DNA of 64,000 nucleotides from Escherichia coli. Its GTDB lineage: Bacteria; Pseudomonadota; Gammaproteobacteria; Enterobacterales; Enterobacteriaceae. Below the pieces are notes generated by a model. It saw nothing but the letters and a program-made list of their open reading frames with translations, did not search any database and was not told the DNA's origin. Location of the stretch: NCBI RefSeq assembly GCF_965641715.1, contig NZ_OZ282453.1; one strand, 5' to 3'. Positions 1-46,051 of the stretch are shown piece by piece; within the stretch, counting starts at the first letter, position 1; every line of letters starts with the position of its first letter. Made by a program: the position numbers and the translations under genes.

Positions 1-243
1 TTTTCAACATAAAGCTGGCGACACATAATGCGATGCCCACGACAGCGACGAGTTGCGTGACGGCTTGTAAAGGCCCCGCCTGGCGACGGGTCTGGCGCAG
101 ACGCAACAAAAGCAGCAACGCCATTAGCGGTAACAGCCAGTGCAGGCCGTTATGCGCTAAGCCAAACCAAATCACAAACGGCCAGGCGAGCAGCAATAAT
201 CCAGTCAGCAGCTTAATCATCGGTAGCGAGCGAATGCCCGACA
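1..243 (-). CDS. Membrane protein, C-terminally truncated by window edge (ATG at 243..241, reads MSGIRSLPMIKLLTGLLLLAWPFVIWF...); next gene after the tandem ACPs in the same operon
   Basis: Manual translation of minus strand; hydrophobic; starts 5 bp downstream of ACP stop; not in ORF track because it has no stop inside the window. Confidence 0.4.
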
Positions 244-248
244 TCAGA

Positions 249-500
249 TCAGGCTTCTTGTAGCAGGCGTTCTACAGCCTCGACGACATCCTGGACTGTA
301 CGCACGGCTTTAAACTCTTCCGGCTTGATTTTCTTACCGGTTTTCTTTTGCAGGTGCACAATCATGTCAACGGCGTCGATGCTGTCCAGTTCCAGATCTT
401 CGTACAGGCGCGCTTCAGGTTTGATGTCCTGCGGATCGATTTCAAACAGCTTAACCAGCAGGGCTGAGACTTCCTGATAGACGGTTTGTTGTTCTGTCAT
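249..500 (-). CDS. Acyl carrier protein (83 aa)
   Basis: ORF track; ACP-like size and LDSIDAVD phosphopantetheine-attachment motif. Confidence 0.8.
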   Translation of the reverse strand: MTEQQTVYQEVSALLVKLFEIDPQDIKPEARLYEDLELDSIDAVDMIVHLQKKTGKKIKPEEFKAVRTVQDVVEAVERLLQEA

Positions 501-511
501 GATGGCTTTCC

Positions 512-769
512 TCAGGCACGTTGCGCAGCAATGAAAGAGGCCAGAGTGGCGACGGAGAAAAAGTGCTGACGCATCTCTTCGCTTTCCGCAGAGAGCACGA
601 TGCCGTACTCATTTTTTACTGCCAGTCCCAGTTCCAGGGCATCGATAGAGTCCAGCCCTAAACCGTCGCCAAACAGCGGCGCGTCGGTATCGATATCATC
701 AGGCGTCAACTCGTCCAGATTGAGGGTGCTGATGATGAGGTTTTTAATTTCCAGATAAAGCGCTTGCAT
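512..769 (-). CDS. Acyl carrier protein (85 aa), tandem with the first
   Basis: ORF track; GLDSIDALEL serine motif typical of ACPs. Confidence 0.8.
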   Translation of the reverse strand: MQALYLEIKNLIISTLNLDELTPDDIDTDAPLFGDGLGLDSIDALELGLAVKNEYGIVLSAESEEMRQHFFSVATLASFIAAQRA

Positions 770-1565
770 TATTTATTCCTGAGAGAGGTAAACAACCTTG
801 TTGTAATTGAAGCAAAAGATGCCGGTTTAACTGCCTTGCTGCCAGCGCCGGTTCTTGTGAAGTTGCATCGTAAAATTTATTGATTTCAACCCGACCATGG
901 ACTGCAACCGTAAAAAACGGCCGGTCAGGTGGAACGTCATACCATTTACTTTGTTTATCCAGCAGATGCTCGCTACAGCCGATCGTCACGATGCGTAAAT
1001 CGCTGGCACAGCGCACGGCAATATTCGCCGCCCCGCGCTGCAGCGTCATTTTTTCACCGGGCTTCGTTCGCGTGCCTTCGGGGAAAATCAGGATAGTGTC
1101 ACCCTGTGCCAGTCGCTGTTGGCAGCGGGGTAACAGGGTTTCAGCTTCGCTGTTGATTAAATAATCTGCCGCCCGCACGACGCCGCCAAGAAAAGGATTT
1201 TTTAACAGCGCGCTTTTCACCAGGCAGTCAGTTTCTGGCATGACTGACGCCAGCAGCACGTAATCGATCAGCGTGGGATGATTGGCTACGACGAGGCAAC
1301 CGCGTTCCTGACGTAAAATTTCAGCGCCATCAATACGATAATCCAGCACGCCAAGCCCTTTCGCGACAGTTAAAAACAGGCGAAAACTGGCGGCAATGCT
1401 GCGACGCGCCAAACGACGGCGGCGGGAAGTATCCCACACCAAAACTAACAATATGTTAAACCACACGACAGAAAGCAGCAGGCCGCCGAGACCAAACAGG
1501 GCAAAACATAACCCGGTCATGACCAGTCGCCAGGTCCACTCCAGACGTGACATCAGCTTACTCAT
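744..1565 (-). CDS. Lysophospholipid (PlsC-type) acyltransferase
   Basis: ORF 744..1583; N-terminal TM segments; HX4D-type motif VVANHPTLIDYVLL; alternative ATG at 1565 gives an ATGA overlap with the upstream stop. Confidence 0.75.
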   Translation of the reverse strand: MSKLMSRLEWTWRLVMTGLCFALFGLGGLLLSVVWFNILLVLVWDTSRRRRLARRSIAASFRLFLTVAKGLGVLDYRIDGAEILRQERGCLVVANHPTLIDYVLLASVMPETDCLVKSALLKNPFLGGVVRAADYLINSEAETLLPRCQQRLAQGDTILIFPEGTRTKPGEKMTLQRGAANIAVRCASDLRIVTIGCSEHLLDKQSKWYDVPPDRPFFTVAVHGRVEINKFYDATSQEPALAARQLNRHLLLQLQQGCLPLSGINNASALSGN

Positions 1566-2308
1566 CTGTGGCTCCAGCGCCATTGCACGCGCTCGCCAGG
1601 CAGTGAAAATGTGTCTACATTTTGTAAATAGTGCTGTAAAAACAACATGCTTTGCGGCAGTGTTGTTTCATTGCCCGCAATGGCTGACTGCGTTTCACAT
1701 TGCCAGTCATCGCCAGCTTCAATCACCAGCGCGACGGCGTACGGCCAGGTCGGCATTTCTGCAGGCAGTTGTGGGTGATAAAACTCGGGCAGAAAACCGT
1801 CAAAATCGACCATCAGCACGCGCTGGTATCCCGCTTGTAACAGGCTAAGCACTTCACACAAACCTTGCTGGAAAGTGTCGCGACCAGCAGAAAGCGATGA
1901 CGAAACGATCGGCTGTTTGGCCGCAATGGTCAGGTTACCCACGGAAGAGTTGTGTACTGAAAGTGCAAAGTCGGTCGGAGAAAGCGCCTGTTCGGTTGCC
2001 AGTGCATGAACAATGCGGTAATTGCGCTCCAGTTCGCCATGACGACTGGTATACAAAACGGCGTCTGGCTGATGGCGGCGTAGCATTGCCAGACCGCATT
2101 CAACAGCCAGTTTGCTGCCTGAACTGAGGCGGCGGGCGGTCATCATTGGCAGTTCACTTAATTTTGCCAACGGCGCGGCAGGGTCAATCGCCCACGGCTG
2201 GCGCGACCATGCTTGCCATTGCTGCGCTTCGCTAAGTCCAGGCGCCAGTGCCTGCCAGTCGGTAATATTTAATGTAAATTTCATCAACGCGCGCCCGCGG
2301 TAAACCAA
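1562..2308 (-). CDS. Small ketosynthase-like protein, possible chain-length-factor-type subunit (248 aa)
   Basis: ORF track; size and operon position between a methyltransferase and acyltransferase/ACPs; domain call is by recollection of aryl-polyene clusters. Confidence 0.45.
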   Translation of the reverse strand: MVYRGRALMKFTLNITDWQALAPGLSEAQQWQAWSRQPWAIDPAAPLAKLSELPMMTARRLSSGSKLAVECGLAMLRRHQPDAVLYTSRHGELERNYRIVHALATEQALSPTDFALSVHNSSVGNLTIAAKQPIVSSSLSAGRDTFQQGLCEVLSLLQAGYQRVLMVDFDGFLPEFYHPQLPAEMPTWPYAVALVIEAGDDWQCETQSAIAGNETTLPQSMLFLQHYLQNVDTFSLPGERVQWRWSHR

Positions 2309-2324
2309 AATTATTAAGTGACGA

Positions 2325-3392
2325 TTATTTCTTTTGGCATATCAAAAGTGTATGCCCAACGCCTAAATTATCGTGGCGCTCTGCTACCTGGAATCCTGCT
2401 TTATTCAGATAGTCGTAAAATTTCTCTGCACTATAGAAACGGCTGTTACCGTTTGCCATGCAGGTAAAATAAAGTGAGGACGCGTTCAGGCTAAACGATG
2501 CTGCTTCAAACCGCTGCGCATCCCAGAACAACTCCATGATGCAAACTTTTGCGCCAGGCTTCATTACGCTGGCAATTTTGCTGAGTATGCTAATTATTTG
2601 TTCGGGTGAAAAACAGTCTAAAAATTGGCTCATCCACCAGATATCAGCCTCGCCCGGTAATGGGGCATCGCTTAGCATATCCACCGCATGGAAATCTATG
2701 CGATCAGAAAAACCTGCATTCGCGATATTTTCTTTCGCTAGTACGATTTGTTGTGGCAGATCTAATAACGTCACGGCGATGTTTTCATTGTATTTGCAGC
2801 AACGCAAAGCCCACTTACCCGTATTACCGCCTACATCGTACAATGTTGTGGGGTTGTTGGCGAATACATAAGGCAGTGCGGCGTTAAATGCGCCATCTGA
2901 ATAGTAATGATCAAACGCAAACCAGCTTTCACGAGCGGCGTCTGGTAATTGCGAAAGTGCCGGATATATCGTCGACCAGTCGCCAAATACTTTTAACCCG
3001 GAAGGTTTTCCTTCATTGAGTGAATCGGCGAGGAAGAAGAGCCCCTGGTAACAGACATCCTGGGTGAAATCCATATTCACGCGAGTCATAGTGTCATGCA
3101 GGAGGTAATGACCGATTTTCGCCAGGTAATAAATTCCCTCTTTACAGGTAATAATTCGCCCGCTTAAGCCCATATCTAACAGAACGCTGGCAGCATATTC
3201 GTTGATATGGCTATGTTCGGTGATATCAGCCAGCGTTGCGCCATGTTTGCCTTGCCGATCCAGATATGAAAGTACACCCGCATTACGTAGGCAGAGTGCT
3301 GTTTGAAAAAGCATAGGGGCAAAGGCAATGCGTTGAGCTTCGGTAATCGCATCCAGTGCGCTAAGAGAATCCTGTTCGTACATGTTGGGCAC
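2325..3392 (-). CDS. Class I SAM-dependent O-methyltransferase
   Basis: ORF track; glycine-rich SAM-binding motif LYDVGGNTGKWA and acidic LLDLP motif. Confidence 0.8.
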   Translation of the reverse strand: MPNMYEQDSLSALDAITEAQRIAFAPMLFQTALCLRNAGVLSYLDRQGKHGATLADITEHSHINEYAASVLLDMGLSGRIITCKEGIYYLAKIGHYLLHDTMTRVNMDFTQDVCYQGLFFLADSLNEGKPSGLKVFGDWSTIYPALSQLPDAARESWFAFDHYYSDGAFNAALPYVFANNPTTLYDVGGNTGKWALRCCKYNENIAVTLLDLPQQIVLAKENIANAGFSDRIDFHAVDMLSDAPLPGEADIWWMSQFLDCFSPEQIISILSKIASVMKPGAKVCIMELFWDAQRFEAASFSLNASSLYFTCMANGNSRFYSAEKFYDYLNKAGFQVAERHDNLGVGHTLLICQKK

Positions 3393-3451
3393 AACCTGTT
3401 AAGAGGGAATTAAATTATTATCGGACCGCAACGGCCCGACTTTAGGAAGAA

Positions 3452-3829
3452 TTATAAATCTGCGCCCGCTGACAAATTCAGTTGAATATCTTTGTCGAGA
3501 TTGCGGACCCAGCGATTGTAGTTTTTATGAATTTGTCCGCCTGACGCTTGTAGGTTCTGGCTATTTTCATAATTGATATCGTAGCTGGATGCCGTGTAGT
3601 TAATGCGTATTTCCGCTGAATGATCGCGTGACTGTTGACGTGCTTTAATTATGCCTTGTCCGGCTTCGGACATAATCCATTTGCGTTCAACGCCAGCTTT
3701 CAGAATCGCTTTTTTCACTTGTTCCTGGGTATGACCAGCGCTGACGGTTGAGTGAACCTGATCAATTGGCGCAGTACGCGCGCAACCTGCTAAAGCACCC
3801 ACAACAGCAATAGCCGCAAACCATTTCAT
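3452..3829 (-). CDS. Predicted lipoprotein of unknown function
   Basis: ORF 3452..3841; internal start MKWFAAIAVVGALAGC gives a signal peptide with lipobox LAGC. Confidence 0.55.
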   Translation of the reverse strand: MKWFAAIAVVGALAGCARTAPIDQVHSTVSAGHTQEQVKKAILKAGVERKWIMSEAGQGIIKARQQSRDHSAEIRINYTASSYDINYENSQNLQASGGQIHKNYNRWVRNLDKDIQLNLSAGADL

Positions 3830-4159
3830 GTAATGTCTCATTAGAACCCCATTAAAGTATTGTTTTTACGAGTAAAGCAAGATTTAACTGTAATTGCTGG
3901 CATCACTATTCTTTATTTAGAGAAAAAATTACTTGTGAGATAAGTCAGTAAGTGCACATCAGAGTAAAAATCTCTGAAATGACTAAATTACTGCCAGCAG
4001 GGACCAACTATAAGTGAGTGAGAAAAATGAGGCAATAAAAATAACACAATGTTATCAGTGCATTCTTTGAGAAGGATTTAATCGCTATTCGGCGTTTATA
4101 TATATTTGACTTAAGGAATGGTTTTTTTAAATTAATTTTCTGAATAATGTTTCATCATT

Positions 4160-8394: not shown

Positions 8395-8525
8395 GGACTG
8401 TTACCCTAACCCTCTCCCCAGAGGGGCGAGTGGACCGATCGCACTCAATGTTGCTGCTTGAAACCGGTACGTAGGACGGATAAGGCGTTCACGCCGCATC
8501 CGGCAAGCAAGTGTAATGGAATACA
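8395..8525. repeat. REP-type intergenic palindromic repeats
   Basis: gtaggacggataaggcgttcacgccgcatccggcaagc and ccctctccccagaggggcgag palindromes. Confidence 0.55.
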
Positions 8526-8528
8526 CAA

Positions 8529-8837
8529 ATGGATTATTTAATTCCTGTTTGCCTGGGATTGCTGGGATTGTTCGCGATGTTCGCCCCCAATTGGCTGATG
8601 CCTGTTTTAATCGCCGTGGGGGGATGGCTGGTGGTACTTGCCTGTGGTTGGCTCTGGCTAATGATTTTTTTACCTTTACTTAACGGCGTCGGGCTTGCTT
8701 ATGCCCTGTGGTTGATGTTCAAAAGGCCATCATTCACGTCCCGCCTGGTTGCTACATGTTGTGTTATCTCCGTCATTCTGATGTTAGCGCTATATTACAC
8801 TTTCCTGACCATGCCACCGTTCCCGGCCCAGCACTAA
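8529..8837 (+). CDS. Hypothetical small membrane protein (102 aa); may be non-coding
   Basis: ORF track only; very hydrophobic; sits between convergent tusA and zntA. Confidence 0.2.
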   Translation: MDYLIPVCLGLLGLFAMFAPNWLMPVLIAVGGWLVVLACGWLWLMIFLPLLNGVGLAYALWLMFKRPSFTSRLVATCCVISVILMLALYYTFLTMPPFPAQH

Positions 8838-8869
8838 CCCTGATAGCCAGAGGCTATCAGGCAACACCT

Positions 8870-19116: not shown

Positions 19117-19383
19117 ATGTCTGCTGTTAAAAAGCAGCGTATCGATCTGCGTTTAACTGACGATGACAAAAGTATGATTGAGGAAGCGGCAGCGATATCT
19201 AATCAGTCCGTCAGCCAATTTATGTTGAACAGCGCTTCGCAGCGGGCTGCGGAAGTGATTGAACAGCATCGGCGGGTGATCCTCAATGAGGAATCCTGGA
19301 CGCGGGTGATGGATGCGCTGAGTAATCCACCGTCACCAGGTGAAAAGCTAAAACGTGCGGTAAAACGTCTTCAGGGAATGTAA
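19117..19383 (+). CDS. ataR: DUF1778-type antitoxin of a GNAT toxin-antitoxin pair (88 aa)
   Basis: Small protein immediately upstream (6-bp gap) of a GNAT gene; symbol assigned from memory of the O157:H7 AtaR-AtaT locus. Confidence 0.7.
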   Translation: MSAVKKQRIDLRLTDDDKSMIEEAAAISNQSVSQFMLNSASQRAAEVIEQHRRVILNEESWTRVMDALSNPPSPGEKLKRAVKRLQGM

Positions 19384-19389
19384 TAATTT

Positions 19390-19917
19390 ATGGATGATCT
19401 GACGATAGAGATTCTGACCGATGATGCAGATTATGATCTACAGCGATTCGACTGCGGCGAGGAAGCGTTAAATCTCTTTCTGACGACACATCTCGTTCGT
19501 CAACATCGCAACAAAATTCTGCGAGCGTATATCCTTTGTCGCAACACTCCAGAACGTCAGGTGCTGGGATATTACACATTATCCGGCAGTTGTTTTGAAC
19601 GAGCCGCATTGCCCTCGAAATCGAAACAGAAAAAAATTCCCTACAAAAATATTCCCAGCGTCACTCTTGGGCGTCTGGCAATTGATCGTTCATTACAGGG
19701 GCAGGGATGGGGAGCAACACTGGTTGCTCATGCCATGAAAGTCGTCTGGTCAGCCTCTTTAGCGGTAGGTATTCACGGTCTTTTTGTCGAGGCGCTGAAT
19801 GAAAAAGCCCATACGTTTTATAAATCGCTGGGCTTTATCCCTTTAGTCGGGGAAAACGAAAATGCGTTATTTTTCCCAACCAAATCCATTGAACTGCTTT
19901 TTACACAGAGCGATTAA
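19390..19917 (+). CDS. ataT: GNAT-family tRNA-acetylating toxin (175 aa)
   Basis: GNAT acetyl-CoA motif region (QGQGWGATLV); paired with upstream antitoxin-like gene. Confidence 0.7.
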   Translation: MDDLTIEILTDDADYDLQRFDCGEEALNLFLTTHLVRQHRNKILRAYILCRNTPERQVLGYYTLSGSCFERAALPSKSKQKKIPYKNIPSVTLGRLAIDRSLQGQGWGATLVAHAMKVVWSASLAVGIHGLFVEALNEKAHTFYKSLGFIPLVGENENALFFPTKSIELLFTQSD

Positions 19918-32164: not shown

Positions 32165-32283
32165 CGCGTATCCTCCTCTGAAGATATTCTTTAAGTTTAC
32201 TCCTTTCCTGCAATCATCAGGATTAATTCAGAGTTATATACCAGGCTTAGCTGGGGTTGCCCCTTAATCTCTGGAGAATAACG

Positions 32284-34029
32284 ATGATAAAACCGACGTT
32301 TTTACGCCGGGTGGCCATTGCTGCTCTGTTCACAGGAAGTTGTTTTAGTACGGTAGCCGCGCCACCTGCGCCGTCTCCTGTTTCTTACGGCGTGGAGGAA
32401 GATGTCTTTCATCCGGTACGCGCGAAACAGGGGATGGTGGCATCTGTAGATGCTACTGCCACTCAGGTGGGGGTGGATATCCTCAAGGAGGGCGGGAATG
32501 CCGTTGATGCCGCCGTGGCTGTGGGCTACGCGCTGGCGGTAACGCATCCGCAGGCAGGGAATCTGGGCGGTGGTGGTTTTATGCTGATCCGCTCGAAAAA
32601 TGGCAATACCACCGCTATCGATTTCCGCGAAATGGCACCCGCCAAAGCGACCCGCGATATGTTCCTTGATGACCAGGGCAACCCGGACAGCAAAAAATCA
32701 CTCACTTCGCATCTGGCTTCCGGCACGCCCGGTACGGTCGCTGGTTTCTCGCTGGCGTTGGATAAATACGGCACAATGCCGTTGAACAAAGTGGTGCAGC
32801 CAGCGTTTAAACTGGCACGCGATGGTTTTATCGTTAACGACGCGCTGGCTGACGATCTCAAAACCTACGGGAGCGAAGTGCTGCCGAATCACGAAAACAG
32901 CAAGGCTATCTTCTGGAAAGAGGGCGAGCCGCTGAAAAAGGGCGACAAGCTGGTGCAGGCGAACCTGGCAAAGAGCCTGGAGATGATTGCCGAAAACGGC
33001 CCGGACGAATTCTACAAAGGCACGATAGCGGAACAGATTGCCCAGGAGATGCAGAAAAACGGTGGCCTGATCACTAAAGAAGATTTAGCGGCGTATAAAG
33101 CGGTCGAACGCACACCGATAAGCGGCGATTATCGCGGGTATCAGGTTTACTCTATGCCACCGCCATCTTCCGGTGGGATTCATATCGTGCAGATCCTCAA
33201 TATTCTGGAAAACTTCGATATGAAGAAATACGGCTTTGGCAGTGCCGATGCGATGCAAATCATGGCAGAGGCTGAGAAATACGCCTACGCCGACCGCTCG
33301 GAATATCTTGGCGACCCGGATTTTGTCAAAGTCCCGTGGCAGGCGCTGACCAATAAAGCCTATGCCAAATCTATTGCCGAGCAAATCGATATCAATAAAG
33401 CGAAACCGTCCAGCGAGATTCGCCCTGGCAAGCTTGCGCCTTATGAGAGTAATCAAACTACCCATTACTCAGTGGTGGATAAAGACGGTAACGCCGTGGC
33501 GGTGACCTATACGCTGAACACCACCTTCGGTACGGGTATTGTCGCGGGCGAGAGCGGTATTCTGCTTAATAACCAGATGGATGATTTCTCCGCCAAACCG
33601 GGCGTACCGAACGTTTACGGGCTGGTAGGCGGTGATGCCAACGCGGTCGGGCCGAATAAACGCCCGCTGTCGTCGATGTCACCAACCATTGTGGTGAAAG
33701 ACGGTAAAACCTGGCTGGTTACCGGTAGCCCTGGCGGGAGCCGGATTATTACCACCGTGCTGCAAATGGTGGTGAATAGCATCGATTATGGCATGAACGT
33801 CGCCGAAGCGACCAATGCGCCGCGTTTCCACCATCAGTGGTTGCCGGACGAGCTGCGTGTCGAAAAAGGGTTTAGCCCGGATACGCTCAAACTGCTGGAA
33901 GCAAAAGGTCAGAAAGTGGCGCTGAAAGAGGCGATGGGCAGTACACAAAGCATTATGGTTGGGCCGGACGGTGAGTTGTACGGCGCATCCGACCCGCGCT
34001 CGGTGGATGATTTAACGGCGGGGTACTAA
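32284..34029 (+). CDS. ggt: Gamma-glutamyltranspeptidase
   Basis: ORF 32257..34029; start MIKPTFLRR; 580 aa. Confidence 0.95.
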   Translation: MIKPTFLRRVAIAALFTGSCFSTVAAPPAPSPVSYGVEEDVFHPVRAKQGMVASVDATATQVGVDILKEGGNAVDAAVAVGYALAVTHPQAGNLGGGGFMLIRSKNGNTTAIDFREMAPAKATRDMFLDDQGNPDSKKSLTSHLASGTPGTVAGFSLALDKYGTMPLNKVVQPAFKLARDGFIVNDALADDLKTYGSEVLPNHENSKAIFWKEGEPLKKGDKLVQANLAKSLEMIAENGPDEFYKGTIAEQIAQEMQKNGGLITKEDLAAYKAVERTPISGDYRGYQVYSMPPPSSGGIHIVQILNILENFDMKKYGFGSADAMQIMAEAEKYAYADRSEYLGDPDFVKVPWQALTNKAYAKSIAEQIDINKAKPSSEIRPGKLAPYESNQTTHYSVVDKDGNAVAVTYTLNTTFGTGIVAGESGILLNNQMDDFSAKPGVPNVYGLVGGDANAVGPNKRPLSSMSPTIVVKDGKTWLVTGSPGGSRIITTVLQMVVNSIDYGMNVAEATNAPRFHHQWLPDELRVEKGFSPDTLKLLEAKGQKVALKEAMGSTQSIMVGPDGELYGASDPRSVDDLTAGY

Positions 34030-34066
34030 GGTTAGCGGCCCTCTTCGTGGGAAGAGGGCTATTTTG

Positions 34067-34351
34067 TCAGGGCAAGCCGAAGGTAGCCTTTTTTATTTCG
34101 TAATCCTGTAGATATTCTTCCAGCGGCTTTGCCGTTCCCAGAGAATGAATTTCACCACTGTCTTTATCAATAATAAAAGGTGCGTTACCAGCTAAGCGCG
34201 CGGCCTCATCTCCAGTTTCGAGAAATTCTCGTGCTTCGAAACAGAAATACCAGCCCTGGCTAAAGCGTCCATGTAGAGTAATGACGACCGGGAGATCTGC
34301 ATCATCAAGGTAATGGTTCGCTTTCGCGAATGCGTCGTGATAAGTAATCAT
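34067..34351 (-). CDS. yrhB: YrhB-family small protein (immunity-like)
   Basis: 94 aa; matches recalled K-12 YrhB. Confidence 0.8.
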   Translation of the reverse strand: MITYHDAFAKANHYLDDADLPVVITLHGRFSQGWYFCFEAREFLETGDEAARLAGNAPFIIDKDSGEIHSLGTAKPLEEYLQDYEIKKATFGLP

Positions 34352-34800
34352 AATTATAATAAATATTATTGTTGAATGTTATATTATTATTCCTGTGTGA
34401 TACATTGAGCAAAGGTGCATTCATCTTCGTCAAAGATATTATTAAATGCTGGTTTTGAAAAAAGTTCATCGGATAAGATATAGTCACGAAATAAGTATCT
34501 GCTAATATTTTGTGATTTCTTTTTCAGAACGTCGAACGGGATTTTCTTATTTAAGATATCAGAATCTTATGATTTGGGTAAAATTCTAAATAAATCAACA
34601 TGTCACTAAAATCATCATAGCCATTAGCTATTTCGGCTAAAATAGAGACTACATGTCTTCGGTCCATCTCACTTAAGGAGTGTAGTTCCGTTGTAAGTTT
34701 TTCCATAGCTTGCATTGCTAAATTTCGAACAAGGAATTTTCTGGTGGTAATCTCTAAAAAGATGGCATGGTTTACAATGATTTTTGTTTCCTTTTGATTA

Positions 34801-35295
34801 TTATGAACAACTATCCATGATTTCGTTTAAGAATGAAGAGAAATCACTAAACGAACTGAATATATTTTCTGTGCCAATATTATCTCTAATTTCAAAAAAG
34901 TTACTTTTAATGTCATAAGTAAATATTGAAATGCTATCATCCCCGATCACTAACCGTTCTTGTAGATCAGGGTTTATGAAATCATCATTATTTCTATAAA
35001 ATTCATTTACGGCAAAAAGGTTTTTAACTGAAGGTTCTGGAATCGAGAGGCTAAATAATCGCAATCCATTAACTTCGAATCCATCCATTGCTCTTAAAAA
35101 AGTAAGATAATCAGGTTGATTCTTAAAAAGAATACTAACTTCATTACATAACTTCTCCAGGCAATTAGTTGAATTAGAATTAAATTCTATTTGGATTATA
35201 CTTTCAATAAATGATTCCTTGAGCGGTGCTTCAAATGGATAGTCTAAATCATTCATCATTTTTATTAATTTGTTTATTTGGGTTTTAGTCATCAT
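34801..35295 (-). CDS. yrhA: Putative immunity protein for the upstream HNH toxin domain (YrhA-like), intact here
   Basis: 164 aa; start overlaps the toxin ORF stop by 4 bp; low-GC gene. Confidence 0.6.
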   Translation of the reverse strand: MMTKTQINKLIKMMNDLDYPFEAPLKESFIESIIQIEFNSNSTNCLEKLCNEVSILFKNQPDYLTFLRAMDGFEVNGLRLFSLSIPEPSVKNLFAVNEFYRNNDDFINPDLQERLVIGDDSISIFTYDIKSNFFEIRDNIGTENIFSSFSDFSSFLNEIMDSCS

Positions 35296-36470
35296 TTTGT
35301 GGGTTCCATAATATTTTTCATGGGAGGATAAATTGAGCCAGATGGAATGGCCCAGGGAGTGATTTTGCTTTCACCTACTAATATTCCCTTAGCTATTCGT
35401 GATTGCATGTTAGTAAAAACTTTATGATATGGTTCGTTTTCGATTAATACTAAATTTTCGAAATCATTAGTACCACCATCATCTAGAGATAGTTTATGGT
35501 GAACATTATAATTTAGAGGAACATAGCCCTTTCTCATTCTTAAAAGGTCTTCGGTGTTGAATCTTCCAGATGCTTCGGAGGTTTTTGCAAGTTTGATAAG
35601 AAAATTTTTTCTTACAGTTTTGTTAAACTCCTTTCGTAAGTTAGCTAAGTCTTTTGAAGGTCTCTTAATGTATATTATTTATATTATGTCTATGCCATCA
35701 AGAAGTTTTTGTTGATCTCTAAGTTTGCCTAAGTAACTATTTATTTCTGTATATGTATCAACTTTAGAACGCTTTGTTAAAAGAATAGATGCTGTTGCTA
35801 TCGCTATGCCCGCTGTTTTTTCATTTAGTATTTGATCATAGCCTTTGATTGCATCTCCACCCAGTTTTTCCGCAGTATCTCTGAATCCTTCAATGTTCCC
35901 ATTGTATACGCCACCAGCAGCAAGTAGCCTGCCAACAGCTTTGCTGTTTAACGTTTTGAAACGATTATTTGTTTGGTTTTTTGAATTTGGTAAAAACAAA
36001 CGGTTATAATTTTCAGGGAGTGCCAAATAGCTGAACTCGGTATTTGCGATAAGATGTTGACAGAGGATAAATTCATAACTAACAGTTATTGTTTCTGTAT
36101 CCAGTTGATTTTGAATGATCTGATGATGAATAGCCGATAAAAAAGCGCCTCTTAGTTGTGTATAATAATACTTTTCCCATCTACCAAATCTATTGATTCT
36201 ATAAAAGTCAAATTTCATAAATAATTGCTCATTATTGTTAATGGAATTAATAAGTAATGGAGTGCTTTTATCAATTAATTTACAAAATGTCATAGCCTGT
36301 AACTGTGAACCAAGCCCCGTATTAGTAATTCTATTTTCGAGTGAGAATGTAAATATTTCATTCTCATGCCCGCTCTGCCAGCGATTACCTATAGATTCAG
36401 TAGTCCCACAACCTGCGGAGATGCTTCCTTGTTGTTCTCCCGTTACTGTCAGATAAACAATATTACTCAT
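35292..36470 (-). pseudogene. yhhZ: Hcp-domain protein fused to a C-terminal HNH nuclease toxin (yhhZ-like), interrupted by one in-frame TAA at 35679..35681
   Basis: 263-aa ORF with Hcp-like N-terminus; same frame continues after the single stop through 47 codons into the 81-aa HNH ORF (NVHHKLSLDDGGTNDFENLVLIENEPYH); 392 codons in total. Confidence 0.65.
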
Positions 36471-36706
36471 CCCTGAAAAGTCCTTTTATGGCATGCTATT
36501 TTATCAATGGCACTATTATGCTTGTTAATTGTTATTTATTTACTCCAGGAAATTGTAGGCGTATATATTAAAAAATAAAATATTACACTTTAGGAAGTAA
36601 TTATGAGGTAAGTCTCAATATATTTATTGGGAAAATAAATACATTAAAGGAAGGTATGCCGATTTTGAATGACACCCTTTTTCCATCTCAGAAAAAGGGC
36701 ACTATT

Positions 36707-37316: not shown

Positions 37317-37409
37317 GCGATCAGGAAGACCCTCGCGGAGAACCTGAAAGCACGACATTGCTCACATTGCTTCCAGTATTACTTAGCCAGCCGGGTGCTG
37401 GCTTTTTTT
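37317..37409 (+). ncRNA. ryhB: RyhB small RNA (Fur-repressed iron-sparing sRNA) with intrinsic terminator
   Basis: Matches recalled RyhB sequence GCGATCAGGAAGACCCTCGCGGAGAACCTGAAAGCACGACATTGCTCACATTGCTTCCAGTATTACTTAGCCAGCCGGGTGCTGGCTTTTTTTTT. Confidence 0.92.
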
Positions 37410-37528
37410 TTGATCTTTCGTTCTCAATTTATCCTCGGGAAGTGCTTGTGTTCGTTATGCGCACTCCAGTAGGAACCACGTCCGCTTTGCGCTAAGGTGT
37501 AAATAACCACCTTAAAAAGGACGAAATC

Positions 37529-42752: not shown

Positions 42753-44849
42753 ATGGAAAAGCACGCAGCTGAATTGCTTTTACAGCGGATGTTAGGAAAT
42801 ACCACCGCTACTTTCAGGGAAGGGCAATGGGAAGCCATAGACGCGGTGGTGAACCAACGGCGAAAACTGCTGGTTGTCCAACGCACTGGCTGGGGGAAAA
42901 GTGCTGTGTACTTCATCGCCAGTAAAATCTTCCGCGATCGCGGCGCTGGCCCGACAATTATCATCTCTCCTTTGCTTGCCCTGATGCGTAACCAGGTTGC
43001 CGCCGCTGAACGGTTAGGTATTACGGCTGAAACGTTGAATTCTACAAACAGAGAAGAATGGCAGCGCATTAGCGATAAGTTGCTGCAAGGTGAGGTCGAT
43101 TGCTTGCTGGTTTCCCCGGAACGTTTGGCAAACCAGGACTTTATCGAAACGGTTTTATATCCTATAGCCGATCGTATTGGCTTGCTTGTGGTCGACGAGG
43201 CGCACTGCATCTCTGATTGGGGCCACGATTTTCGCCCGGATTACCGACGTATATTAGATATTTTGCGCCAACTACCTGCGAATACCCCTGTTCTGGGTAC
43301 AACCGCGACAGCGAATAACCGTGTCGTTGAGGATATCCGTCAGCAATTGGGTGACATTGTGATTCAGCGTGGAACGCTGGCTCGCGAAAGTTTGGCGCTT
43401 GATGCCTTAGTCTTAGGTGAACAGTCATCCCGTCTGGCATGGTTAGCAACGGTTATCCCTCAGTTTTCCAAATCGGGAATTGTTTATACCCTGACTACTC
43501 GCGATGCCGAACTTGTCGCCGAGTGGTTAAGGAAAAATGGTATCAGTGCATTTGCTTACTACAGCGGCGTGACTTGCGAAGGCGCGGAAGATTCTAATAC
43601 TGCCAGGGAATATCTGGAGCAGGCGTTGCTGGCAAATAAAATTAAAGTGCTGGTTGCGACAACGGCGCTGGGAATGGGCTTTGACAAACCGGATTTGGGG
43701 TTTGTTATTCATTACCAGATGCCAGGTTCGATAGTTGGTTACTACCAACAGGTGGGGCGTGCCGGTCGCGGTATCGATTCTGCTGTTGGCATACTGCTTT
43801 GCGGCAGTGAAGACCGTGCTATTCATAAATTCTTCCGTGAAAGCGCCTTTCCTGCGGAGGCGCAAATTCATGAAATACTCAACGTACTTAGCGTGAATGA
43901 CGGTCTTACCTTACGAGGCATTGAACAACGGACGAATCTCCGTTATGGGCAAATAGAAAAAGCACTGAAATTATTGGTAGCTGAAAATCCATCGCCTGTG
44001 GTGTATACCGAGAAATTATGGCGCAGAACAATTGTCAGTTTTTCTCCTGACCATGAACGAATTAACCATTTGATGAATCAGAGAAAAAGTGAGCTGGCAG
44101 ACGTTGAAAGCTATATCACGACCAAGGAGTGCAAAATGCAATTTCTGCGCCGCGCACTCGATGAGCCAGGTGCCGAACATTGTGGTAAATGTAGCAGTTG
44201 TCTTCAGCATCCGTTGTTGTCGCCCGACATTGATAGCGGCTTACTCCATGCGGCAAACTTATTTATTAAACACGCTGACCTGCCATTAAATCTCAATAAA
44301 CAGGTGGCAGCTGGGGCTTTTACGCAATACGGATTTAAAGGGAACTTGCCTGCGAGTTTACAAGGATCTACGGGGCGAATCCTTTCTCGTTGGGGAGATT
44401 CCGGGTGGGGAAAGCAGGTAGCACAGGAGAAAAAAACGGGGCGATTCAGTGATGAACTGGTGGAGGCATGTGCGGAAATGGTTCGCCAACGCTGGAATCC
44501 GCATCCTGAACCAACCTGGGTATGCTGCGTTCCTTCATTAAAGCACCTCGACCTGGTTCCTGATTTTGCCCGGCGACTGGCGGCGAAACTTGGCTTACCT
44601 TTTATTGATGCCATTGAAAAAGTCGTGGACAATCCACCGCAGAAAATGCAGCAAAACCGTTTCCACCAGTGTCAAAATCTCGACGGGGCGTTTGTGATTA
44701 CCCCTCCTTTGATGCCTGGTCCGGCGTTGCTGGTTGACGATATCGTGGATTCTGCATGGACGCTGACAGTTCTGACAGCACTGTTACGCCAGGCAGGTTG
44801 CCCGACGGTTTATCCTCTTGCCCTTGCTTCTACCTCGGTAAAAAATTGA
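42753..44849 (+). CDS. RecQ-family helicase fused to C-terminal phosphoribosyltransferase-like domain (698 aa); candidate toxin/effector
   Basis: RecQ motifs GWGKS, VVDEAHCISDWGHDFRPDY, GTTATA, QQVGRAGRG; C-terminal PRTase-type motif LLVDDIVDSAWTLT. Confidence 0.8.
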   Translation: MEKHAAELLLQRMLGNTTATFREGQWEAIDAVVNQRRKLLVVQRTGWGKSAVYFIASKIFRDRGAGPTIIISPLLALMRNQVAAAERLGITAETLNSTNREEWQRISDKLLQGEVDCLLVSPERLANQDFIETVLYPIADRIGLLVVDEAHCISDWGHDFRPDYRRILDILRQLPANTPVLGTTATANNRVVEDIRQQLGDIVIQRGTLARESLALDALVLGEQSSRLAWLATVIPQFSKSGIVYTLTTRDAELVAEWLRKNGISAFAYYSGVTCEGAEDSNTAREYLEQALLANKIKVLVATTALGMGFDKPDLGFVIHYQMPGSIVGYYQQVGRAGRGIDSAVGILLCGSEDRAIHKFFRESAFPAEAQIHEILNVLSVNDGLTLRGIEQRTNLRYGQIEKALKLLVAENPSPVVYTEKLWRRTIVSFSPDHERINHLMNQRKSELADVESYITTKECKMQFLRRALDEPGAEHCGKCSSCLQHPLLSPDIDSGLLHAANLFIKHADLPLNLNKQVAAGAFTQYGFKGNLPASLQGSTGRILSRWGDSGWGKQVAQEKKTGRFSDELVEACAEMVRQRWNPHPEPTWVCCVPSLKHLDLVPDFARRLAAKLGLPFIDAIEKVVDNPPQKMQQNRFHQCQNLDGAFVITPPLMPGPALLVDDIVDSAWTLTVLTALLRQAGCPTVYPLALASTSVKN

Positions 44850-46051
44850 TGAATCTTTCAGCCAATGCACAAGCAACTCTCCTGCTAACCAGCGATTTTT
44901 CTCGCGCGGCGGCGAGTGAGTATAAACCTCTTAGTAATAGTGAATGGGGGAAGTTTGCATTATGGCTGAAGCACCAACGTATCAGTCCCGCCGAGCTTCT
45001 GGTGCCGCAACCGCAAGAGAAACTTACAGGCTGGAGCGATCCGCGTATTTCTCAGGAGCGTATTCTTGGCTTGCTGGCGCGTGGTCATAGTCTGGCGTTG
45101 GCGGTAGATAAGTGGCAACGCGCCGGTTTATGGATCTTAACCCGCGGAGATGCTGATTATCCCGTTCGCTTGAAAAACCGATTGCGAACGGATGCACCTC
45201 CCGTTTTATTTGGCTGCGGGAATAAAGCATTACTGCAAGCGGAAGGTATGGCGATTGTTGGCTCGCGAGATGCTCCGACTGACGATTTGCGCTATACCCA
45301 ACAACTGGCCGCGAAACTGGCCCAACAGGGGATTTGCGTTATCTCTGGTGGTGCGCGAGGTATTGATGAATGTGCAATGGCGTCGGCACTGGAGGCCGGG
45401 GGAACTGCCGTTGGCGTATTAGCTGATAGCTTGTTAAAAACGAGTACGTTAGTGAAATGGCGTGAAGGGCTTATAGCAGGCAACCTGGTGTTGATTTCGC
45501 CGTTTTACCCAGAGGTACGTTTCACCGTCGGCAATGCGATGGCGCGAAATAAATATATTTATTGCCTTGCTGAAAGCGCAATGGTTGTACGTGCGGGAAT
45601 GACCGGTGGAACGATAACCGGGGCGATGGAGGCATTAAAACATCAGTGGCTGCCTGTGCAGGTTAAACCAAATCAGGATATGCAATCAGCCAATTCACGA
45701 TTAGTAGAAAATGGGGCGTCATGGAGTGCTGAACAGGCTGAGAATGTGACGATCAGACTGCCAGACGTTCCTGGGCTGATGTATGACAGAGCACTCCGTA
45801 ACGCTCAACCAGAACTGTTTTCGCTGCATGAAGATGACGCAAATTACGCAGTAATGCCCGCGTATACGCCTGTCGATTTTTATCAACTCTTTGTGGCGGA
45901 ACTGGCGATCCTTGCAAAGGAATCGATAAGTATTGAAAGGCTGGCGTCTTGTACTGGTTTAACCATCGAACAAATTAGTGTGTGGCTGAACCGCGCAGAA
46001 GAAGAGGGAAGGGTTATCCGATTGGGCGAAGGTCATTATCAGTTCAGGTAA
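44849..46051 (+). CDS. DprA/Smf-like (SLOG Rossmann) protein with C-terminal winged helix (400 aa); candidate antitoxin/partner
   Basis: ORF 44756..46051; ATG at 44849 overlaps upstream stop (TGATG); DprA-like GSRD and ISGGARGID motifs. Confidence 0.75.
   Translation: MNLSANAQATLLLTSDFSRAAASEYKPLSNSEWGKFALWLKHQRISPAELLVPQPQEKLTGWSDPRISQERILGLLARGHSLALAVDKWQRAGLWILTRGDADYPVRLKNRLRTDAPPVLFGCGNKALLQAEGMAIVGSRDAPTDDLRYTQQLAAKLAQQGICVISGGARGIDECAMASALEAGGTAVGVLADSLLKTSTLVKWREGLIAGNLVLISPFYPEVRFTVGNAMARNKYIYCLAESAMVVRAGMTGGTITGAMEALKHQWLPVQVKPNQDMQSANSRLVENGASWSAEQAENVTIRLPDVPGLMYDRALRNAQPELFSLHEDDANYAVMPAYTPVDFYQLFVAELAILAKESISIERLASCTGLTIEQISVWLNRAEEEGRVIRLGEGHYQFR

Follow-up and report, generated by a model that had tools for sequence, protein, structure and literature searches.

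A rare ochre allele of the orphan evolved-Hcp effector gene yhhZ in Escherichia coli, with the downstream immunity-type gene intact

Introduction

The gene yhhZ of Escherichia coli (also annotated tssD) encodes an Hcp protein carrying a nuclease-like toxin module at its C-terminus. We describe here the copy found in a 64-kb stretch of an E. coli chromosome (contig NZ_OZ282453.1 of assembly GCF_965641715.1; 64,000 nucleotides, referred to below as the window), in which a premature TAA interrupts the toxin module and very probably inactivates the effector. The effector Hcp-ET1 and its immunity protein ETI1 were reportedly characterised by Ma et al. in 2017 in Virulence (8:1189). Hcp-ET1, known from strains STEC004, 55989 and O104:H4 C227-11, is, according to reviews, an antibacterial DNase that degrades target DNA and is delivered by T6SS2, a type VI secretion system (T6SS), and it is neutralised by ETI1, which is encoded directly downstream (PMC6730261, PMC6099711); a further secondary source on the pair is the preprint 10.1101/2024.03.05.583533. 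YhhZ itself had earlier been presented in PMC2907695 as an orphan 'evolved Hcp' whose HNH domain is degenerate, and it has been assigned to His-Me finger group 32 (PMC5714182).

Reading frame and premature stop

The yhhZ frame is on the minus strand and starts with an ATG at 36470. It runs for 263 sense codons (36470..35682), from MSNIVYLTVTGEQQGSISAG to ...KLLDGIDII, and meets a TAA at 35681..35679. The resulting truncated open reading frame (ORF; 35679..36470, minus strand) covers an Hcp domain at residues 1-147, a conserved linker that ends near residue 232, and then roughly the first 31 residues of the toxin module. Past the TAA the frame stays open for 128 further codons, until a TGA at 35294..35292, and the whole frame of 392 codons plus stop (1179 nt) equals the intact K-12-type gene in length, as a preliminary description of this DNA had stated. 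When the gene is read codon by codon against PapRG-04-4, a K-12-type strain and strain 600468, the premature TAA (35679..35681, minus strand) falls on Glu264, encoded by GAA in these relatives, so that a single codon has been replaced, as that description had supposed. The changed base is window position 35681, which is A on the plus strand and C in the relatives, a G-to-T change on the coding strand.

The toxin-module remnant (codons 265-392 and the TGA; 35292..35678, minus strand) contains neither a stop nor a frameshift and would represent most of a colicin-E7/pyocin-S2-like HNH DNase domain. Given its composition on the mRNA strand (A152 C71 G58 T106 of 387), about 7.5% of random codons would be stops and a run of 128 stop-free codons would have a probability of ~5e-5, so the open frame is not due to chance. 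The first in-frame ATG, GTG or TTG beyond the TAA is an ATG at 35537, which is 47 codons (141 nt) downstream and opens an 81-aa ORF (Met312-Lys392; 35292..35537, minus strand; MRKGYVPLNYNVHHKLSLDDGGTNDFENLVLIENEPYH...EPTK). The calculated anti-Shine-Dalgarno duplex at this start has a ΔG of -1.0 kcal/mol, compared with -5.3 for the start of yhhZ itself; by this calculation no Shine-Dalgarno sequence is present at ATG 35537, and the start with a ribosome-binding site soon after the stop that would mark a split gene pair is missing. The 81-aa ORF is judged not to be a gene. Retranslation reproduced every coordinate and count given in the preliminary description for the ORF, the TAA, the 47-codon gap, the ATG and the 81-aa ORF.

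Functional yhhZ and Hcp-ET1 genes hold Hcp and toxin in a single uninterrupted frame. Because of the TAA at codon 264, the window copy is a pseudogene of the yhhZ family and not a functional member of it.

Locus and genomic setting

The gene lies between yhhY (36707.., minus strand) on one side and yrhA-yrhD-yrhB-ggt on the other, the orthologous position of E. coli yhhZ/tssD. Position and sequence agree on its identity: it is flanked by yhhY and yrhA and shows about 94% or more identity over the 392 codons, which bears out the original naming of the gene. The neighbour yrhA is treated below. The small ORF yrhD (34551..34715, minus strand) takes its name from the annotation of relatives, as does yrhB (34067..34351, minus strand), an orphan immunity-type gene of the YrhB family for which Pfam Imm35 (PF15567) is found on an identical Logan contig. 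Beyond yrhB lies ggt (32257-34029, plus strand). The whole effector/immunity cassette is enclosed in an AT-rich islet (34060..36700, not assigned to a strand) between the ggt and yhhY terminators; a composition scan gives it a GC content of 0.29-0.36, against 0.50-0.58 in its flanks, and terminator-like hairpins bound it at 34037-34060 and 36675-36699. K-12 yhhZ and yrhA are both on a list of H-NS-associated 'promoter islands', which fits the AT-rich composition of the islet.

The window as a whole is ordinary E. coli chromosome, collinear with PapRG-04-4 at 97-99.5% identity in the order yhhT region, fts, rpoH, liv, ugp, ggt, yhhY, yhhX, gnt, asd, glg and glpR. No T6SS structural genes occur within the 64 kb, where the core genes run from yhhT to glpR, as had been noted from the sequence, and within the window this Hcp protein is not encoded with a T6SS apparatus. 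The interval between ggt and yhhY varies among E. coli strains. The version present in the window, defined as a match covering >=80% of a 2.8-kb query, is found in 3,757 of 5,426 complete genomes, and in O157:H7 a DUF4225 gene replaces yhhZ. With respect to window positions 32257-36700, about 1,600 of the 5,426 complete genomes are without yhhZ.

Domain structure and the position of the stop

The Hcp-like character of the N-terminus, proposed from inspection, proved solid. Residues 1-147 match TIGR03344 at 125 bits, where the cut-off is 58.9, and span positions 1-161 of that 167-position model; further matches are PF05638 (Hcp), with E = 3.8e-12, and the solved Hcp structures 6a2v, 3he1 and 5mxn, with E = 1e-11 to 2e-18. 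Evolved-Hcp relatives from Citrobacter, Salmonella and Enterobacter have residues 1 to about 232 in common with YhhZ, with a hydrophobic segment (TAGIAIATASILL) at the end of this region, and beyond it they bear unrelated C-terminal toxins, some with PF15644, PF11429 or PF21814. The end of this common homology marks a polymorphic-toxin junction near residue 232.

Orthologues with the same C-terminus as YhhZ are 380-392 aa long (380-386 aa in Citrobacter) and extend down to 50% identity. Invariant positions in 14 orthologues include Ile265, Tyr267, Arg270, His324, His325, Asp330, Asp331, Asn335, Asn339 and His349. Those from His324 to His349 belong to the HNH/His-Me finger core at residues 322-349 (NVHHKLSLDDGGTNDFENLVLIENEPYH; 35424..35507, minus strand), which is located by PF01844 at residues 322-343, by the invariant columns and by a predicted ββα unit, and which is contained in the 81-aa ORF. 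The HNH motif had been pointed out downstream of the stop by eye. With a single sequence as query the signal is weak (PF01844 E = 0.015; Col-Pyo_DNase E = 1.4), and a profile of the YhhZ family searched against the PDB finds the DNases of pyocin S2 (E = 0.0018) and colicin E7 (E = 0.003), in an alignment that pairs family positions 280-344 with DNase residues ~42-122. DNase homology in YhhZ starts before residue 280. An HH...N...H motif on a predicted ββα core is present in the family; in the window allele it would sit in the untranslated remnant.

An AlphaFold2 model was built from 14 sequences. Its Hcp half is poor (pLDDT, the predicted local distance difference test score, <50), the alignment being shallow, and its C-terminal domain is confident over residues ~260-385, with a mean pLDDT of 78-93 per ten-residue block across 261-380. 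According to the model, residues 260-268 form a strand, 272-313 helices and 321-360 a ββα unit (β 321-325, β 340-344, helix 345-360), with block means of 84-93 in the ββα core. A Foldseek search of the whole model against the PDB gave weak Hcp matches only and no DNase. The TAA is about 30 residues into the toxin module, within its first confidently predicted strand (260-268) and not in the linker. The earlier proposal that the toxin is decoupled from its Hcp carrier is supported, with the refinement that the stop falls within the toxin module rather than at the boundary between domains.

The immunity-type gene yrhA

Directly downstream of yhhZ is yrhA (34801..35295, minus strand), an intact gene of 164 aa in the position of an immunity gene, which matches the YrhA family model NF038335 with 125.5 bits (cut-off 55). 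The downstream gene of immunity type mentioned in the preliminary description is therefore present and undamaged; its role as cognate immunity gene is taken from the literature on ETI1 and is putative here. The yrhA ATG overlaps the yhhZ TGA by 4 nt (ATGA). Its product is identical to WP_000988496.1 of PapRG-04-4, a strain with an intact yhhZ, and differs from the 55989 copy at 1 of 164 residues. PADLOC gave no match for yrhA or for the toxin remnant. The premature TAA would end translational coupling at the ATGA and leave 387 untranslated bases upstream of yrhA; the lost coupling and possible Rho polarity may lower yrhA expression.

Rarity of the allele

The nearest complete genome, PapRG-04-4, differs from the window allele at 3 of 1179 bases (99.7% DNA identity), one of them being the change from GAA to TAA at codon 264. 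GAA occupies this codon in 4/4 sequenced comparison strains (PapRG-04-4, the K-12-type SY3626C5, 600468 and 55989). The frequency of the stop was estimated with a 71-base stretch across it, placed clear of known polymorphisms, which matched 3,785 complete E. coli genomes. Two of these have the exact TAA-containing 71-mer and the other 3,783 differ; among the matches listed, all 58 non-identical genomes show a single-base difference. One carrier is strain A30 from a baboon (NZ_CP028745.1, AOY83_RS01885), with TAA at codon 264, and the other is 2018-05-2CC from a person in Viet Nam (NZ_AP027877.1, AABK05_RS01470), where translation puts the stop at codon 264. PGAP labels the gene of both as a tssD pseudogene with the note 'internal stop'. 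The exact 263-aa product has also been deposited as SQM44808.1 ('Secreted protein hcp') and was found on 27 contigs in 35 collection blocks, with the same neighbours on all 24 of the contigs that were read.

Since the nearest intact allele differs by just one base at this codon, an error of sequencing or assembly in the source genome was worth considering. We regard it as extremely improbable. The identical 263-aa product occurs on at least 24 contigs from independent samples, including Logan assemblies derived from the Sequence Read Archive (SRA), and one Logan contig (SRA run ERR14841801) is 100% identical to the window, base for base, over 6,792 nt; two further complete genomes, which come from different laboratories and hosts, have the same TAA. 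An identical allele in many independent assemblies and two complete genomes rules out the private sequencing error that had been raised as a possible refutation. E264* is a real but rare segregating null allele.

Fused and split architectures

The preliminary description had allowed that homologues might naturally be two separate genes at this boundary. A natural two-gene arrangement was ruled out by the survey of complete genomes together with protein clusters. Full-length fused proteins form clusters of 13,190 and 1,877 member sequences, and in both E. coli and Citrobacter the fused form of 380-392 aa prevails. With two carriers in 3,785 genomes, the stop is not conserved among homologues.

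The same description had left room for readthrough or for reinitiation at ATG 35537, and a functional split can be imagined in which the first ORF supplies an Hcp carrier and a free nuclease is made separately. The frame of 128 codons is after all still open, the HNH core motif is intact in the 81-aa ORF, and this ORF ends in the ATGA overlap with yrhA and could in principle couple to translation of the immunity gene. Against this, the stop is UAA followed by A, and UAA is recognised by both release factors. No ATG, GTG or TTG occurs in frame for 47 codons, and the ATG that follows has no Shine-Dalgarno sequence. A fragment starting there would be without the first ~70 DNase-equivalent residues, including the predicted strand 260-268 and helices 272-313, and, being unattached to Hcp, it could not be delivered. 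The split point is confined to the rare carriers, and other genera have fused proteins. We consider a functional split highly improbable. Rescue of the toxin by readthrough or reinitiation is very unlikely, because the stop is UAA then A, no start follows for 47 codons, a Shine-Dalgarno sequence is missing and the DNase fold would be incomplete.

Origin of the allele and other lesions of yhhZ

All three TAA alleles are members of a single allele family; the window allele differs from that of A30 at 9 nt and from that of 2018-05-2CC at 14 nt, mostly in the first 360 nt. In a 12-kb comparison, the window and A30 show zero mismatches from about 34000 to 36100 (~2.1 kb), a block that takes in yrhB, yrhD and yrhA and extends over the 3' two-thirds of yhhZ (to about nt 359), where the TAA lies. 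Outside it, in ggt and in yhhY with the 5' part of yhhZ, they differ by 9-25 per 500 nt, or 2-5%. The pattern at ~34000-36100, around the effector/immunity islet, is clearly that of a mosaic made by recombination. Since an identical block of ~2.1 kb lies between divergent flanks, E264* probably arose once and then moved between backgrounds by homologous recombination.

Recurrent mutation at codon 264 was suspected from a 263-aa K-12-type protein (P0009) and rejected: its contigs end at nt 790/791 with GAA intact, and the protein is not the product of a nonsense mutation. Three independent K-12-type assemblies (L012, L013 and L014) have contigs that end exactly at the position of the window TAA (nt 790/791). 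These breaks probably mark an insertion sequence (IS) or other repeat inserted at an AT-rich spot in another lineage. Large clusters of seemingly truncated proteins (for example one with 1,558 members of ~234-274 aa) were likewise considered as a sign of frequent toxin loss and were not counted as lesions, because the P0009 contigs that were read are fragments at short-read contig ends and most listed members are labelled 'partial'.

Other changes in the gene were seen in public data. A cluster of 526 sequences has IS1 terminal sequence translated after yhhZ codon ~313, a clear lesion; in one allele residues ~251-294 (44 aa) are deleted in frame; and a 556-aa yhhZ-yrhA fusion protein is also on record (proteins P0038, P0036 and P0031, respectively). 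In the K-12-type strain SY3626C5 (L002, 2431-3573) yrhA is interrupted by IS1 and yhhZ is intact. In many strains the constraint on the yhhZ locus appears to be weak.

These observations bear on an adaptive reading of the allele, in which loss of the toxin with retention of immunity creates an 'immune non-producer' (a cheater), or relieves self-intoxication or cost in a strain without a delivering T6SS, so that selection helps the allele spread. Consistent with it, none of yrhA, yrhD and yrhB is damaged, strains with a working toxin have an identical yrhA, the same ~2.1-kb block occurs in backgrounds with divergent flanks, and the toxin half has suffered other independent lesions (the IS1 insertion after ~313, the 44-aa deletion and the breaks at nt 790). 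The great rarity of the allele, however, speaks against a strong advantage, and E. coli normally shows mosaic recombination even where nothing is selected. The reverse pattern in K-12, in which the toxin is intact and IS1 has broken yrhA, makes the locus seem to drift under weak constraint; the locus is also AT-rich and on the H-NS-bound 'promoter islands' list, and many of the 'partial' entries in databases stem from contig ends and are not lesions. Adaptive loss is on balance unlikely.

Interpretation and significance

The most satisfactory explanation, in which we have high confidence, is that the window carries an orphan 'evolved Hcp' effector gene, yhhZ, very probably the orthologue of Hcp-ET1, inactivated by one G-to-T change that turned the GAA of Glu264 into an ochre TAA. 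Translation would halt after residue 263. The product, if stable, would consist of Hcp and the linker followed by 31 toxin-module residues and would have no nuclease; the remaining 128 codons would be an untranslated remnant, and the 81-aa ORF would not be expressed to any useful extent. The remnant presumably still looks intact because the lesion is recent, the carriers having 0-2 further substitutions in that stretch. The strain is predicted to be a non-producer, yet through its intact yrhA it could still be protected from kin that possess an intact Hcp-ET1.

Several points weigh against this interpretation or limit its reach. YhhZ and Hcp-ET1 are very probably the same orthologue judging by sequence, and this equation rests on reviews, the common architecture and the 55989 locus, not on a locus-tag match. 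The absence of T6SS genes holds for the 64-kb window, and the 263-aa product may be unstable or may keep some role. The open frame after the stop would be equally expected under selection, and the few substitutions cannot separate the two cases. A bolder proposal would make the E264* block a selected 'immune non-producer' cassette that moves by recombination, in which the 263-aa product may enter T6SS tubes and traces of the HNH fragment may keep yrhA under selection; we give it little credence.

Under the preferred explanation of a single inactivating change, the gene is an ordinary nonsense pseudogene. The orphan T6SS effector it derives from has been characterised, the immunity gene has been kept, and the pseudogene is already known and already flagged in public genomes. 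The correct annotation is a yhhZ/Hcp-ET1 pseudogene (internal stop, Glu264*), not a 263-aa 'secreted protein Hcp' followed by an 81-aa hypothetical protein; two public annotations use the split form (SQM44808.1; BED20519.1 with BED20520.1). Beyond annotation the finding has little significance and opens no new question. It adds one further natural case of orphan T6SS toxin loss with the immunity gene kept, and it is of mild interest as a null allele identical by descent across divergent backgrounds, with an 'immune non-producer' genotype. Located on a short recombining block, E264* is a handy natural isogenic-like null control for studies of Hcp-ET1.

Other features of the window

Several differences from related genomes lie elsewhere in the window. 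At 42753-46051 on the plus strand a RecQ-like helicase (698 aa) is followed by a DprA-like protein (431 aa), matched by PADLOC as PsyrT (1066 bits) and PsyrA (671 bits). This PsyrT/PsyrA pair is an insertion of ~3.5 kb between gntU and yhgN and is absent from PapRG-04-4 and 55989. Between livJ and panM, an 88-aa ORF and a 175-aa GNAT-like ORF (19117-19917, plus strand) are inserted relative to PapRG-04-4; the two look like a small antitoxin/acetyltransferase-toxin pair, with weak NCBIfam matches. About 415 bases between tusA and zntA (8455-8869), also absent from PapRG-04-4, contain a small hydrophobic ORF and adjoin sequence like that of repetitive extragenic palindromic elements.

The window starts within a lipid-type biosynthetic cluster (1-3830) adjoining yhhT, which by the annotation of PapRG-04-4 comprises two acyl carrier proteins, an acyltransferase, a ketosynthase chain-length factor, a methyltransferase and a lipoprotein. 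In its place 55989 has acpT-nikABCDER. The cluster is presumably akin to the aryl polyene cluster that some E. coli carry. The small RNA RyhB (Rfam RF00057, 83 bits) is found at 37346-37410 on the plus strand between yhhY and yhhX, as expected in E. coli.

Comparison with known systems

Among the closest systems is yhhZ of K-12, which occupies the same position in the order yhhY-yhhZ-yrhA-yrhD-yrhB-ggt, has the same 1179 nt and consists likewise of Hcp, linker and HNH domain. The K-12-type allele differs from the window allele by 39 nt, with about 94% protein identity. The damage is reversed between the two: in the K-12 type yrhA is broken by IS1 and yhhZ is intact, whereas in the window yhhZ has TAA at Glu264 and yrhA is intact. 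A30 and 2018-05-2CC have the same codon-264 TAA as the window, with flanks that are 2-5% different in places.

Strain 55989, one of the sources of Hcp-ET1, carries an intact 392-aa copy at the very same locus, 93.9% identical to the repaired window protein. Hcp-ET1 is a working effector according to the reviews, whereas the window allele, as read from its sequence, would be unable to make the DNase part. Among bacteriocins, the DNases of colicins E7 and E9 and of pyocin S2 (PDB 7cei, 1m08 and 4qko) have a similar HH...N...H motif, and the ββα core that carries it is predicted in YhhZ. Their similarity to YhhZ is marginal (E about 0.002-0.003), and extra N- and C-terminal elements are present. 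The manner of delivery also differs, YhhZ being delivered by fusion to Hcp whereas the colicins use a translocation domain.

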